Shown here: positions 56,075-58,348 of the stretch, piece after piece | Numbering within the stretch: position 1 is the first letter of the stretch | Layout: every line of letters starts with the position of its first letter | From: an uncultured Candidatus Saccharibacteria bacterium | GTDB taxonomy: Bacteria > Patescibacteriota > Minisyncoccia > Minisyncoccales > GWA2-38-27 | Reading direction: 5' to 3' | DNA length: 64,000 nucleotides | Assembly (NCBI GenBank): GCA_964609075.1 | Contig: CAZSQP010000001.1 | Span: forward strand, 33,593 to 97,592 | The notes under the pieces: generated by a model | What the model was told of the DNA's origin: nothing | What the model saw: the letters and a program-made list of their open reading frames with translations, nothing else | Database searches by the model: none | Made by a program: the position numbers and the translations under genes

Positions 56075-56084
56075 TAAGAATAAA

Positions 56085-56141
56085 GTTGGCAGACGGCAGT
56101 ACTCCTGTTCTTTATGAACGAGAATTGGCATGTCTGCCAAC
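56085..56141 (+). repeat. Module H3 (GTTGGCAGAC stem family)
   Basis: Stem GTTGGCAGAC/GTCTGCCAAC. Loops cagtactcc and gaattggca. Inner hairpin GTTCTTTATGAAC. Confidence 0.7.
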
Positions 56142-56143
56142 TC

Positions 56144-56176
56144 AAGCCCTGAGCTATAAGCTTGGGGCTTTTTATT
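56144..56176 (+). terminator. Intrinsic terminator T1 ending array A
   Basis: AAGCCCTGAGCT-ata-AGCTTGGGGCTT (12 bp including 2 G-U pairs) followed by TTTATT. Confidence 0.65.
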
Positions 56177-56197
56177 AAGAAAACATTCTCCACAGGC

Positions 56198-56226
56198 TTG
56201 ACATAATAGAAATAATAATATATTAT
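56198..56226 (+). promoter_or_regulatory. Promoter P2 (TTGACA-N17-TATTAT) for array B and the downstream gene
   Basis: Consensus -35, 17-nt spacer, near-consensus -10. H4 begins 8 nt after the -10. Preceded by TTCTCCACAGG. Confidence 0.65.
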
Positions 56227-56233
56227 ATTAAAG

Positions 56234-56289
56234 GTTAGCGAACGAAGAAAATCGTGTTCTTCGGAACGATGGCAAGGTTGTCCGCTAAC
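56234..56289 (+). repeat. Module H4 (UUCG type)
   Basis: Stem GTTAGCGAAC/GTCCGCTAAC. Loops agaaaatcg and tggcaaggt. Inner hairpin GTTC-TTCG-GAAC. Confidence 0.7.
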
Positions 56290-56291
56290 TT

Positions 56292-56351
56292 ATGAGAGGA
56301 GACGAGGAAGAGTTTGTCCAAAAAGACGAAAAGAACTCTGTCTCCTCTCAT
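56292..56351 (+). repeat. Module H5 (A-rich type)
   Basis: Perfect 12-bp stem ATGAGAGGAGAC/GTCTCCTCTCAT. Loops ggaagagtt and aaagaactc. Inner element GTCCAAAAAGAC. Confidence 0.7.
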
Positions 56352-56361
56352 TATAAACAAA

Positions 56362-56417
56362 GTTGGCAGACGAGCATAGGGGTGTTCTTCGGAACGAGGT
56401 GGGGAATGTCTGCCAAC
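56362..56417 (+). repeat. Module H6 (GTTGGCAGAC stem family, UUCG type)
   Basis: Stem GTTGGCAGAC/GTCTGCCAAC. Loops gcatagggg and ggtggggaa. Confidence 0.7.
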
Positions 56418-56422
56418 TAAAA

Positions 56423-56476
56423 GGGCGAGACGAGTGGTGTATTGTCTTGAAAGACGACGTTTGATTTGTCTCGCCC
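56423..56476 (+). repeat. Module H7 (A-rich type, GGGCGAGAC stem family)
   Basis: Stem GGGCGAGAC/GTCTCGCCC. Loops gtggtgtat and cgtttgatt. Inner element GTCTTGAAAGAC. Confidence 0.7.
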
Positions 56477-56495
56477 CCTTTTCAAGCATATTAAA

Positions 56496-56520
56496 TTTAT
56501 AGAGAACGATCCTCTATAAA
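56496..56520 (+). repeat. Mini hairpin TTTATAGAG-AACGATC-CTCTATAAA inside array B
   Basis: 9-bp stem with an AACGA-containing loop and no variable loops. Stem sequence is shared with the hairpin of dispersed repeats R1 and R2. Confidence 0.5.
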
Positions 56521-56537
56521 AATGATATCCTTGAAAA

Positions 56538-56586
56538 GGGGACGGAACACGCGTTGTCTCGAAAAGACGAAGAACGTAATGTCTCC
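56538..56586 (+). repeat. Module H8 (A-rich type, short stem)
   Basis: Stem GGGGAC/GTCTCC. Loops aacacgcgt and agaacgtaa. Inner element GTCTCGAAAAGAC. Confidence 0.55.
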
Positions 56587-56592
56587 CTAAAA

Positions 56593-56650
56593 CGCTGGCA
56601 AACGTAAGGCAGCATGTTTTAAAGAACGAAGGCTGATTTGTTTGCCAGCG
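56593..56650 (+). repeat. Module H9 (variant inner hairpin GTTTTAAAGAAC)
   Basis: Perfect 11-bp stem CGCTGGCAAAC/GTTTGCCAGCG. Loops aaggcagca and aggctgatt. Confidence 0.65.
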
Positions 56651-56688
56651 TCAGAAATAAAAGAGCCCTGCTCTTTTAAAATAGATAT

Positions 56689-56733
56689 GTCCTGTATCTA
56701 CAGGACGAAACCAGAATGTCCGCTCAAGCGGAC
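56689..56733 (+). other. Two short GTC...GAC hairpins in the gene leader, joined by a GA-N8-T linker
   Basis: GTCCTGT-atct-ACAGGAC, then GAaaccagaaT, then GTCCGC-tcaa-GCGGAC, then GAAAAG, RBS and ATG. Uses the same junction grammar as the modules. Confidence 0.4.
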
Positions 56734-56752
56734 GAAAAGAAAGGAGAGAAGT

Positions 56753-58006
56753 ATGAGAATCATCGGAATCAGGCACAGAAGAAAGAAAACGACAGAAGGA
56801 GAAGCAAGACCCACAGAAGTCTTTATCCTGGAAGAAAAAAAGGAAAGATCTTACCCTCTTCCAGACTCGACAGCAGAACTTGATTGGGTAATGGGAAGGT
56901 ATCCGGTAAAACACAAAAAACCGGATCCCGAAGAAGATCTATCAGATTTTCTCCCCCACCAAATCAAGTGGCGCAAGCTTAAAAAGAACGAAAAACCGAA
57001 ATACTTTTCCAAAAACCTCGTGCGAGGCAGCAAAAAAGAGCATTTTCTTGCTACTAAGGTTCCCGCTTCTTACGACGGCCTCCAGGCCGGCGATACTGTT
57101 GCCATGGTTTTGGGAGGATCCGGCGACCGCCTGGCTTTCGCTCTCTCAAGGAGAGCGGAGAAAATCGGTGCCACCGTTCTAAGAATCCCGTCTTTCCGCC
57201 TCAAAGAGGAAAGAGAGGGAGAAAAAGAAAAGGACGCTCAAAACCTGGCAAAACTTGCCAAATCAAAACCTGGCCTCTTTTACCAAGCAACTCCCAGAGA
57301 CAGAAACATCATCAGAGTAAGAGAGTGTCTTCAGGCAAGAAACGACGCCATGAAAGACCGAATGGCCTGCGGGCAGCGTCTCCTCCAGAGAACAGTCGGC
57401 GCTATCTTTTGCAGTGAATCGGGCGGTTATCCCGAAGGCTCCATTGAAGAAGAGTTCGATAAGATTAAAGCCAACGATACTATCTTCACAGTACTCCTCG
57501 AAGAAGAAGAAAACCGAGAAAAAGAGCTGTCTAAGGCTCTGGAAAATCTGGATATCTACAAGATCATCTTCGAACCCATCAAGGGCGTAGGGCCTATGAT
57601 TGCAGCCCGCCTTATTTCCGCAATCCAAGACATCAGAAGGTTCCCCGGCAAAGCGCAGCTGAAAGCCTTCTGCGGAGTTCACGTTACCAAGGAGGGCGGT
57701 TTCGCCAGAAGAAAACGGGGAGAAGTGGCAAACTGGCATCCAGACGCCAGGCAGGCCCTATATCTTTTGGGAGACCAGTTCAACCGGCGCCCTGACTCTT
57801 ATTGGGGTGAAAGATTCCGAGACTACAAGAAAAAACTGAGAGAGAAGCACCCTAAAGTCGAAACCAAGGAAAACGGAAAGAAAAAGTACACCGACGGCCA
57901 CATCCACAAAATGGCTATGTGGCGGACTCTTACTAAGTTTGTAGAAAGCCTCTTTGCCGAATGGTGGCGCATCGAGAGAGAGCACCAGGTAGAACAGGTT
58001 TCCTGA
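56753..58006 (+). CDS. IS110-transposase/Nop-domain-like protein; candidate RNA-guided effector (TasR-like?) of the hairpin arrays
   Basis: Start re-assigned to ATG 56753 (RBS AAAGGAGAGaagtATG); the track ORF starts at a TTG inside module H9. C-terminal IKGVGPMIAARLISAIQDIRRFPGKAQLKAFCGV...ARQALYLLG matches the HhH motif of IS110 Transposase_20 and the Nop domain. N-terminal IIGIRH, VAMVLGGSGDRLAFAL..ATVLRIPSF and KDAQNLAKLA parallel IS110 RuvC-like motifs, but with non-acidic residues at expected catalytic positions. These alignments are from memory. Confidence 0.55.
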   Translation: MRIIGIRHRRKKTTEGEARPTEVFILEEKKERSYPLPDSTAELDWVMGRYPVKHKKPDPEEDLSDFLPHQIKWRKLKKNEKPKYFSKNLVRGSKKEHFLATKVPASYDGLQAGDTVAMVLGGSGDRLAFALSRRAEKIGATVLRIPSFRLKEEREGEKEKDAQNLAKLAKSKPGLFYQATPRDRNIIRVRECLQARNDAMKDRMACGQRLLQRTVGAIFCSESGGYPEGSIEEEFDKIKANDTIFTVLLEEEENREKELSKALENLDIYKIIFEPIKGVGPMIAARLISAIQDIRRFPGKAQLKAFCGVHVTKEGGFARRKRGEVANWHPDARQALYLLGDQFNRRPDSYWGERFRDYKKKLREKHPKVETKENGKKKYTDGHIHKMAMWRTLTKFVESLFAEWWRIEREHQVEQVS

Positions 58007-58028
58007 ATTATTAAAAAAGCATAAGAAA

Positions 58029-58078
58029 AGCAAACTACCTGCCTTTTATCTTTCCAGACGAAGAGGAGAATGTGTGCT
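58029..58078 (+). repeat. Module H10 (degenerate)
   Basis: Weak stem AGCAAAC/GTGTGCT. The 3' half CAGAC-GA-agaggagaa-T-GTGTGCTAA parallels the 3' half of H13. Confidence 0.35.
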
Positions 58079-58084
58079 AAATCA

Positions 58085-58137
58085 AGAGGAGACGATAATG
58101 AGATTGTTTGAAAAACGGGGATGCTCATGTCTCCTTT
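58085..58137 (+). repeat. Module H11 (A-rich type)
   Basis: Stem AGAGGAGAC/GTCTCCTTT. Loops taatgagat and ggatgctca. Inner element GTTTGAAAAAC. Confidence 0.6.
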
Positions 58138-58146
58138 CACTAAAAA

Positions 58147-58203
58147 GTTGGCAGACGATATTTTGTTTGTTCTTCATGAACGAGAATTATCATGTTTGCC
58201 AAC
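58147..58203 (+). repeat. Module H12 (GTTGGCAGAC stem family)
   Basis: Stem GTTGGCAGAC/GTTTGCCAAC. Loops tattttgtt and gaattatca. Inner hairpin GTTCTTCATGAAC. Confidence 0.7.
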
Positions 58204-58205
58204 TA

Positions 58206-58238
58206 AAGCCCCAAGCTTAAAAGCTTGGGGTTTTTATT
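58206..58238 (+). terminator. Intrinsic terminator T2
   Basis: AAGCCCCAAGCT-taaa-AGCTTGGGGTTT followed by a T-run. Paralogous to T1. Confidence 0.7.
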
Positions 58239-58255
58239 AAAGCCTTTTCATAGAA

Positions 58256-58284
58256 TTGACAGAATATAAAAAGAGATATATTAT
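58256..58284 (+). promoter_or_regulatory. Promoter P3 (TTGACA-N17-TATTAT) for array C
   Basis: Same hexamers and spacing as P2, and shares ATATATTATATTAA with P2. Confidence 0.65.
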
Positions 58285-58292
58285 ATTAAGAA

Positions 58293-58348
58293 GTTAGCAG
58301 ACGAAGGTTTATTTATTCTTCGGAACGAAGACGAGAATGTCTGCTAAT
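58293..58348 (+). repeat. Module H13 (UUCG type, GTTAGC stem family)
   Basis: Stem GTTAGCAGAC/GTCTGCTAAT. Loops aggtttatt and agacgagaa. Confidence 0.7.

Follow-up and report, generated by a model that had tools for sequence, protein, structure and literature searches.

Duplicated junction blocks and uneven spacer divergence in a stem-loop TIGR-Tas array of an uncultured Candidatus Saccharibacteria bacterium

Introduction

How does an array of RNA guides obtain new guides while the scaffolds that carry them stay the same? This question is raised by a locus in a 64,000-nucleotide stretch of DNA from an uncultured Candidatus Saccharibacteria bacterium (hereafter the window; contig CAZSQP010000001.1, with positions counted from the first letter of the window). 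Two segments on either side of one protein-coding gene repeat the same series of hairpin module, terminator, promoter and hairpin module, and within the first module of the series most differences fall into a single loop. An initial annotation read this pattern as a segmental duplication followed by replacement of one 10-nucleotide (nt) window, and proposed a dedicated process of guide diversification or acquisition.

The locus is a member of the known TIGR-Tas systems (TIGR being short for tandem interspaced guide RNA), of the stem-loop type and the TasR clade of the candidate phyla radiation (CPR). TIGR-Tas systems, described in 2025, are compact RNA-guided DNA binders, CRISPR-like and at home in tiny parasitic bacteria, that need no protospacer adjacent motif (Faure et al., 2025; PMC12045711). 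This source and Xu et al. (2026; bioRxiv 10.64898/2026.09.09.750476) are cited here from the available parts of their texts. The former describes stem-loop TIGR arrays with two spacers of 8-12 nt, flanks in box C/D position and variable palindromic stems, as well as a CPR clade of TasR with an inactive RuvC domain. For the same clade, Xu et al. (2026) report a hairpin between the spacers, arrays on either side of tas, and DNA that is left uncleaved while transcription is repressed under RNA guidance. Hence neither the system nor its likely function, RNA-guided repression by a nuclease-dead protein, is new. According to both sources, it is unknown where TIGR spacers come from and how the arrays expand, and Xu et al. 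(2026) add that sequence alone leaves unsettled whether units have their own promoters. In the literature on tigRNA and duplication, screened by title and abstract with bioRxiv supplements outside this scope, array evolution is not a topic, and in the available text of the two papers the string "duplicat" occurs in a CRISPR-repeat sentence only.

New here is the locus as a member of the family, with promoter/terminator pairs inside its array and with duplicated blocks. Taking all evidence jointly, we regard it as fairly probable that this is a TIGR array with a TasR repressor, that the two blocks are paralogous copies of one junction, and that spacer A was changed by half-unit recombination.

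Results

The modules are tigRNA units accompanied by a CPR-type TasR

The stem-loop TIGR array spans positions 55956-58640 and, in a motif-anchored parse, consists of 16 hairpin tigRNA units and one decayed unit. It flanks tasR on both sides, with nine units upstream and seven plus the decayed one downstream, all on the + strand. The host genome, a member of the Patescibacteria/CPR, comprises 636 kb and is 90% complete. Each module measures about 56 nt and is enclosed by an outer stem that reaches 11 bp at most (7 in H1 and H8) and closes in ACG, after which follow one base (usually A), the 9-nt spacer A, UGU and an inner hairpin with a 5-bp stem; the second half continues with ACG, one base, the 9-nt spacer B, UGU and the 3' arm of the outer stem. 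All 16 units fit ACG-N-9 nt-UGU ... ACG-N-9 nt-UGU. When they were aligned with nine units of a genome from the same genus (G001), CG and UGU were invariant across the 25 units; the assignment of the ACG and UGU motifs to box C and box D is by position only.

Across these 25 units, 94.5% of the cells of the proposed structure were paired, compared with 77% in column shuffles and 39-52% with slid partners, and changes on both sides were found in 9 of the 16 base pairs. The outer 11-bp helix (94.2% of cells paired) carried such changes at 7 of 11 pairs, and the inner 5-bp helix between the spacers (95.2%) at 2 of 5. Because pairing exceeds both controls and the stems covary, the modules are structured RNAs. 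The folds of H3 and H12, the units on which the block comparison turns, reached z=-5.3 and z=-5.4, respectively. The units also share an orientation: in 19 non-redundant loci parsed in the same way, 88 lay on the tasR strand and one on the opposite strand. An archaeal or eukaryotic box C/D sRNA (RUGAUGA and CUGA with a K-turn) was considered and ruled out, with SNORD75 scoring 19.7 bits against a threshold of 50 and the motifs here being ACGA and UGU; an Rfam scan of the region returned nothing above threshold except the tRNA.

The gene between the two array halves, tasR (56753..58006, + strand), encodes 417 amino acids with an RuvC-like N-terminal domain, a coiled coil and a Nop-like C-terminal domain. 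Its top Protein Data Bank (PDB) sequence match in phmmer was TaTasR (9MTY; E=1e-15, residues 236-409), with IS621 at 0.22. An AlphaFold model of the protein (pLDDT 90.7, built on 15 homologues) retrieved chains A and B of 9MTY as the best Foldseek matches (E 2.4e-12, 409 columns including the N-terminus), then IS621 and ISCro4, then TasH. Residues R7 and V119 occupy RuvC catalytic positions, in the same columns as R8 and V126 of a 547-aa protein (L008) from a Ca. Staskawiczbacteria metagenome-assembled genome, which is 53% identical to this TasR in alignment A2; the first catalytic column holds R in 12 of the 15 aligned sequences. The RuvC domain therefore looks catalytically dead. The organism name, length and residue pair of the L008 protein coincide with those given for CsTasR in the available text of Xu et al. 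(2026), and since R7 and V119 align with the corresponding residues of this CsTasR-like protein, the TasR described here is best placed, by sequence, in the CPR clade of nuclease-dead TasR.

The gene is single-copy in its host genome. Of 40 related genomes, 3 carry a homologue, as do, at E <=1e-30, 17 out of 400 genomes sampled from the phylum. A metagenome scan yielded 14 TasR loci with a full-length identity of at best 57% and partial matches of up to 63%; the nearest genome is G001, whose TasR is 62% identical.

Pfam also points to transposases, with Transposase_20 (3.6e-8) in the C-terminal domain and a weak match to DEDD_Tnp_IS110 (0.01), and the next structural matches after TaTasR, IS621 and ISCro4, lie in the same direction. 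Nevertheless, it is very improbable that the locus is an IS110-family insertion sequence accompanied by bridge or seek RNAs, or that its hairpins are small RNAs unrelated to one another. The first and second catalytic positions hold Arg and Val, TaTasR is far ahead of IS621 in both sequence and fold, there are 16 tandem two-guide units rather than one bridge RNA, the single genomic copy has the same folD neighbor in G001, and no Rfam family exceeds its threshold. The modules of the duplicated blocks are tigRNA units of the published TIGR-Tas system, a point missed in the initial annotation.

Immediately upstream of tasR, a leader at 56689..56738 (+) forms two small hairpins with UGU...ACGA boxes, 8 nt apart and abutting the ribosome-binding site. 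The boxes are shared with the guide units, the fold reaches z=-4.3, and by eye a single or double element of this kind precedes the ribosome-binding site in 11 of 15 TasR loci. TasR might bind to this leader, either to regulate its own gene or in processing.

The two blocks are homologous and, within the first unit, differ most in one guide

The upstream block comprises H3 (56085..56141, C-type stem; spacer A 56097-56105, spacer B 56122-56130), the intrinsic terminator T1 (56144..56176, a 12-bp stem followed by a U run), the promoter-like site P2 (56198..56226) and H4 (56234-56289). Its counterpart downstream of tasR comprises H12 (58147..58203, a C-type paralogue of H3; spacer A 58159-58167, spacer B 58184-58192), the terminator hairpin T2 (58205..58238, 13 bp followed by a U run), the promoter-like site P3 (58256..58284) and H13 (58293-58348), all on the + strand. 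P2 and P3 both read TTGACA-17-TATTAT, match the consensus at 11 of 12 positions each, and are the two top-scoring sites in the region.

The colinearity of segments 56076-56245 and 58138-58306 claimed in the initial annotation was borne out by three comparisons. A repeat search matched 56082-56178 with 58144-58240 (97 nt, 77%) and 56191-56231 with 58249-58289 (41 nt, 78%), and a global alignment of 56076-56292 with 58138-58350 gave 153 identical columns out of 218. In the terminator-promoter part between the modules (56142-56232 vs. 58204-58291), 72 of 94 columns are identical, with an alignment score of 43 against -7.6 +/- 4.9 over 2000 shuffles (maximum 9; z=10); among 1500 random windows of the same genome, the highest score was 11. 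The homology of the blocks is therefore far beyond chance, and beyond the effect of common module scaffolds.

Within the H3/H12 pair, the elements said to be largely identical are so: the outer stem arms agree at 11/11 and 10/11 positions, the inner hairpin stems at 5/5 and 5/5, the inner loop at 4/5 and the right loop (spacer B) at 7/9, and the promoter hexamers are conserved as well. The left loop (spacer A) retains 2 of 9 positions, and the base preceding it also differs. The unit differs at only 12 of its 57 positions, eight of which belong to the 10-nt window of the left loop (Fisher p=1.2e-5); the mismatches are hence not evenly spread along the unit, and an even spread is what the initial annotation had named as its refutation. 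The concentration of differences in one guide loop holds for H3/H12 and does not extend to the block as a whole, in which 10-nt windows with at most four identities occur at four sites: the H3/H12 left loop, the terminator loop, the terminator-promoter linker and the H4/H13 left loop. In H4/H13, both loops have diverged (2/9 and 4/9).

A decayed copy stands directly after tasR. H10 (58020..58083, +), a decayed A-type unit, is recognizable in its 3' half only; over 48 nt, positions 58045-58092 are 75% identical to 58312-58359, and by hand count the right loop differs from that of H13 at one of nine positions. Its 5' half is lost and its fold is no better than that of 9 of 200 shuffles, in agreement with its earlier description as a degenerate copy related to H13.

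The blocks belong to a higher-order repeat and share derived states

Along the array, the series of stem types A-B-C appears four times (H1-H3, H4-H6, H10-H12 and H14b-H16), forming a higher-order repeat of three units with start-to-start distances of about 277 nt upstream of tasR and 267-276 nt downstream, and a terminator follows the C-type unit three times. The orthologous locus of G001 adjoins the same folD gene and has the order P-A-B-(plain hairpin)-G-H8-H9-tasR-C-T-P-A-B-C-T. Present only in the genome studied here are H1-H3-T1, directly after tRNA-Leu, as well as H10, H11, H14 and H14b. Because the positions of promoters and terminators, including the promoter-like site before the A-type unit, are conserved in the two species, the comparison supports their reading as real signals.

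The two blocks of this genome are more alike than either is to the orthologous C-terminator-promoter-A block of G001, and they have derived states in common. Because of these shared states, the duplication, or gene conversion, took place in the lineage of this genome, and the sister comparison thereby sustains the segmental duplication that had been proposed, now as part of the repeat of about 277 nt.

Two further observations concern the fate of single elements. At the position of H6, G001 (L012, ~2395-2440, minus strand) shows a plain hairpin, perfectly paired, related in its stem and devoid of spacers and boxes, as if it were a unit that lost its interior. In T1 (56144-56170), the 5' arm resembles the G001 terminator and the 3' arm resembles T2, with two G-U pairs remaining, and T1 looks like an intermediate or recombinant of two terminator versions.

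Spacers turn over independently of scaffolds in other TasR loci

Nine positional orthologue pairs of the two genomes kept 168 of 198 stem bases and 40 of 162 spacer bases, the latter at the random level. A wider survey covered 262 units in 35 TasR loci, giving 1124 within-locus pairs with 9-nt spacers, among which 101 had outer stems identical at 20 or more of 22 positions. Both spacers agreed at no more than 4/9 in 78 of these same-stem pairs and at 7/9 or more in six; in 13 pairs, 5-6/9 for one spacer was combined with 4/9 or below for its partner. The remaining four were discordant and came from four loci, namely H3/H12, a B-type pair of G001 (8/9, 3/9), and pairs in L030 and L036. From the between-locus null for 7/9 or better (0.0016 per comparison), we estimate that about 0.3 such cases would be expected by chance.

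In 38 pairs, the inner hairpin is conserved too. Their 76 spacer identities fall into 58 at 4 or below, four at 5-6 and 14 at 7 or above; by our own estimate, about three would occupy the 5-6/9 class by chance, so the distribution is bimodal and intermediates are essentially missing. The linker of a duplicated block in L036 is identical over 63 nt; the unit after it agrees at 3/9 positions in spacer A and at 8/9 in spacer B, and the next one has identical stems around a wholly different interior. L039 carries a three-unit block on either side of tasR (1107-1330 and 3839-4063), with scaffold segments of 56+36+37+13 = 142 nt that are 100% identical, whereas the interiors, three in number and 27-29 nt long, are unrelated and unequal in length; this is the clearest case of a "cassette" observed. 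Because of the discordant pairs, the bimodal identities, these two blocks and the orthologues in G001, guides, and sometimes whole interiors, thus change independently of the scaffold.

Multi-unit higher-order repeats with distinct stems are common in the surveyed loci (L023, L024, L025, L019 and L030, with periods of ~261, 541, 298, 400 and 300 nt, respectively), and some copies in this set are still identical in both spacers.

Possible drift under unequal constraint

How far, then, does the H3/H12 difference call for replacement of spacer A? Several points weigh against it and thereby against the half-unit exchange that we favor. At a mismatch rate of 0.23, that of the whole terminator-promoter part, seven mismatches in nine positions have p ~0.001 in a hand binomial calculation, but at the rate of the most diverged linker (~0.45) this becomes p ~0.05, and the unconstrained terminator-promoter linker is itself heavily diverged. 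From the window alone, replacement rather than drift is therefore a marginal case; it is the recurrence of the same pattern in other TasR loci that speaks for the swap of a 10-nt window suggested earlier. The similarity of the H3 and H12 spacers B is not exceptional either, being just one of five spacer pairs at 7/9 or better among the 496 in the array (expected: 1.1 by letter shuffle, P=0.0025; 1.4 by column shuffle, P=0.015). No donor for spacer A of H3 or H12 was found among the 32 spacers of the array, the best match being H12A-H16B (7/9) in the other half-position, so a recombination model needs a lost or foreign donor. The C-type stems (H3/H6/H12/H16) hold an A-U pair in 4/4 units of this genome, where 2/2 G001 units have G-C, and the B-type stems (H2/H5/H11/H15) hold G-C in 4/4 units, where 2/2 G001 units have C-G. 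Such species-specific covarying pairs suggest concerted evolution, or homogenization, of the scaffolds within a genome, and hence the contrast between scaffold and spacer, and the apparent speed of the spacers, may be overstated. Finally, the surveyed pairs are not independent, 19 of the 38 coming from L030 and 7 from L023.

A rival account is plain drift. The blocks would be old duplicates in which selection holds the stems, boxes, terminator stems and promoter hexamers, perhaps with gene conversion homogenizing the scaffolds, and the spacers, neutral or diversifying, have become saturated; the resemblance of the H3 and H12 spacers B would then be a matter of chance or of a half-site that both units require. 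The four low-identity windows in the blocks, one of them in a non-guide linker, agree with such drift, as do the covarying stem pairs present in all paralogues, the 78 of 101 same-stem pairs with both spacers at the random level, and a 7/9 spacer pair that is not rare. It leaves unexplained, however, the four discordant pairs in four loci against about 0.3 chance values of 7/9 or better, and there is no surplus of intermediate identities (four against about three). In L039 and L036, where linkers are identical over 36-63 nt around unrelated interiors of unequal length, conversion tracts would have to skip every interior. We therefore give plain drift perhaps one chance in several. As a neutral clock, 25-nt flanks were also compared: among eight pairs with both flanks at 80% or above, six had random-level spacers, a weak test since flanks often include neighboring stems.

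Exchange by recombination at conserved scaffold elements, which we prefer over both drift and dedicated acquisition, has in our judgment a chance just short of even. Similar spacers also occur under different outer stems in the array (H1B/H9B, H7B/H16B (7/9) and H8A/H14bA (6/9)); this is a hint, suggestive only, of half-unit shuffling between stem types.

Candidate sources of new spacers

A dedicated machinery that swaps a 9-10-nt guide, or a whole interior, for target-derived sequence in the manner of CRISPR adaptation would account for the bimodal identities and discordant pairs, the whole interiors exchanged between identical scaffolds in L039 and L036, and new spacers that have no donor in their own array; the two published accounts, which leave spacer origin unexplained, also leave room for it. 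It is nonetheless unlikely. The neighbors of the locus are topA, tRNA-Leu, folD, an NYN-domain gene and glyA, none of them an adaptation-type gene, and the locus holds no candidate for such an activity. This TasR lacks the RuvC catalytic residues. A search of the 636-kb genome outside the array, with both half-site orders and both strands, found no self-target 18-mer at up to one mismatch, a result that also counts against the explanation we favor; for the 16 units, there were one and three hits with two mismatches, which were judged to be at chance level without a shuffled control. In large phage or metagenome collections, exact 18-mers are expected by chance according to our own estimate, and the same point is made in the available text of Xu et al. 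(2026). As for population variants, no variant letters or joints were seen in reads and contigs of three runs from one study, none of them listed as RNA, and in contigs of the source sample; run X2 held the source contig and identical low-coverage fragments, and run X3 the tRNA only. With no candidate gene in the locus, and with explanations at hand that need no dedicated machinery, the process of diversification or acquisition put forward in the initial annotation was not upheld.

Two specific candidates were rejected. The gene for the NYN-domain (RNase-like) protein (59552-60022, - strand) lies about 0.9 kb from the end of the array, and as a processing partner, or as a component of an acquisition process, it would be expected elsewhere; it recurs near only one other of 53 loci (L026). 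A diversity-generating retroelement is present elsewhere in the genome, but does not fit the substitutions: H3A differs from H12A at C (four times), G, A and T of H3A, i.e. at adenine in one of seven cases, and the locus contains no reverse transcriptase.

A broader form of replacement can be envisaged, in which outer stems and linkers are fixed docking sites and either a single 9-nt spacer or a whole interior, comprising spacer A, inner hairpin and spacer B, is swapped, by a dedicated activity or by scaffold-guided recombination with foreign arrays. Arrays would then grow by multi-unit blocks with their own terminator and promoter, and H3/H12 would be an intermediate caught with one guide exchanged and the other ancestral. 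We hold this cassette-like renewal to be a tentative possibility, somewhat below the half-unit exchange.

Putative transcription units and remaining elements

Terminators and promoter-like sites appear to divide the locus into three transcription units, inferred from sequence: tRNA-Leu with H1-H3 and T1; P2 with H4-H9, tasR, H10-H12 and T2; and P3 with H13-H16 and T3. All elements named below are on the + strand. The first unit starts with tRNA-Leu(CAA) (55868..55952), 4 nt past which begins the sub-array of H1 (55956..56011, an A-type unit whose outer stem is shortened in its 5' arm), H2 (56017..56072, B-type stem) and H3. This sub-array has no promoter-like site of its own and is likely co-transcribed with the tRNA, in which case its guides may be released through tRNA processing.

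The second unit holds six tigRNA units before tasR, H4-H9 (56234..56649), of which H5 lies at 56294-56349, H6 at 56362-56417, H7 at 56422-56477, H8 at 56534-56590 and H9 at 56594-56649. Between H7 and H8, an inverted repeat (56467-56549) forms a long conserved hairpin with 38-nt arms (56467-56504 and 56512-56549) that are 82% complementary, and G001 has a shorter version at the same place. After tasR follow H10, H11 (58084..58138, B-type stem) and H12. The third unit comprises five tigRNA units (58293..58606), namely H13, H14 (58353-58407), H14b (58423-58478), H15 (58483-58538) and H16 (58551-58606), and ends in T3 (58611..58648), a hairpin beyond H16 that resembles a terminator and has a U-rich tail; it was read by eye and is missing from the terminator scan. 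The CUU motif at the stem base, which the available text of Xu et al. (2026) names as a processing mark, was seen, by eye only, after some units (H4, H7 and H14), while others are without it.

Discussion

In the explanation we propose, by analogy with the experimentally studied relative CsTasR, one tigRNA unit would be bound by a dimer of TasR whose RuvC domain is dead; the two spacers of the unit would each pair with one strand of an 18-bp DNA site, and transcription would be blocked without cutting. The two blocks would be paralogous junctions, each made of the last unit of one set, a terminator, a promoter and the first unit of the next, that arose by segmental duplication or gene conversion within the repeat of about 277 nt. 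Selection would keep the stems, boxes, inner hairpin, terminator stems and promoter hexamers, leaving spacers and linkers free to vary. The H3 and H12 spacers B would be common by descent and the spacers A unrelated, as a result of half-unit exchange by recombination, the breakpoint falling within the conserved inner hairpin or the boxes. The donors would have been units elsewhere in this array or in a related one, and wholesale mutation is less likely.

Among characterized systems, the closest is CsTasR. As far as the available text of Xu et al. (2026) goes, the two share a CPR-clade TasR whose first and second RuvC catalytic positions are occupied by Arg and Val, tigRNA units in which long outer stems enclose spacers of 9-10 nt separated by a 5-bp hairpin, and arrays upstream and downstream of tas. 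They differ in that the protein described here has 417 amino acids and lacks the insertion of ~100 amino acids in the C-terminal domain of the L008 protein, and in the consensus promoter/terminator pairs inside the array and the three-unit higher-order repeat, neither of which appears in the main-text passages of that study. The stem-loop TIGR-TasA array on a Peromyscus leucopus gut contig, as presented in the available text of Faure et al. (2025), has the effector TasA without RuvC in place of TasR; a hairpin in the loop that separates the spacers is a feature only of the array described here. TaTasR (9MTY), the best PDB match in sequence and structure, has the tandem-spacer logic in common, but it differs in its active RuvC domain (D11), its tigRNAs of 36 nt and its dual-repeat arrays without long stems; relative to it, the TasR studied here has ~110 additional N-terminal residues within the RuvC domain.

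More distant parallels exist as well. IS110/IS621 recombinases (8WT6) have related RuvC-like and Nop-like RNA-binding domains and a guide RNA with internal loops, but also catalytic DEDD residues and Ser, a single bridge RNA per element, and mobility, none of which is true here. Like CRISPR arrays, the TIGR array combines short guides with a conserved scaffold and variable spacers that turn over much faster than the scaffold. In contrast to CRISPR, it has no identical repeats and no cas1/cas2, carries two 9-nt spacers per unit, and arranges several stem types in a higher-order repeat; the polarized addition of spacers is not evident.

The locus thus gives sequence-level handles on how TIGR arrays get their guides and on whether units have their own promoters. 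One handle is the presence of consensus promoter/terminator pairs inside the array, at the same positions in a second species; the other is the set of duplicated multi-unit blocks, whose scaffolds match completely or almost so around single guides or whole interiors that bear no relation to each other. Were this to hold across the ~2,500 published stem-loop arrays, guides would be renewed in place at fixed scaffolds, unlike in CRISPR adaptation, which would point experimenters to where to look.

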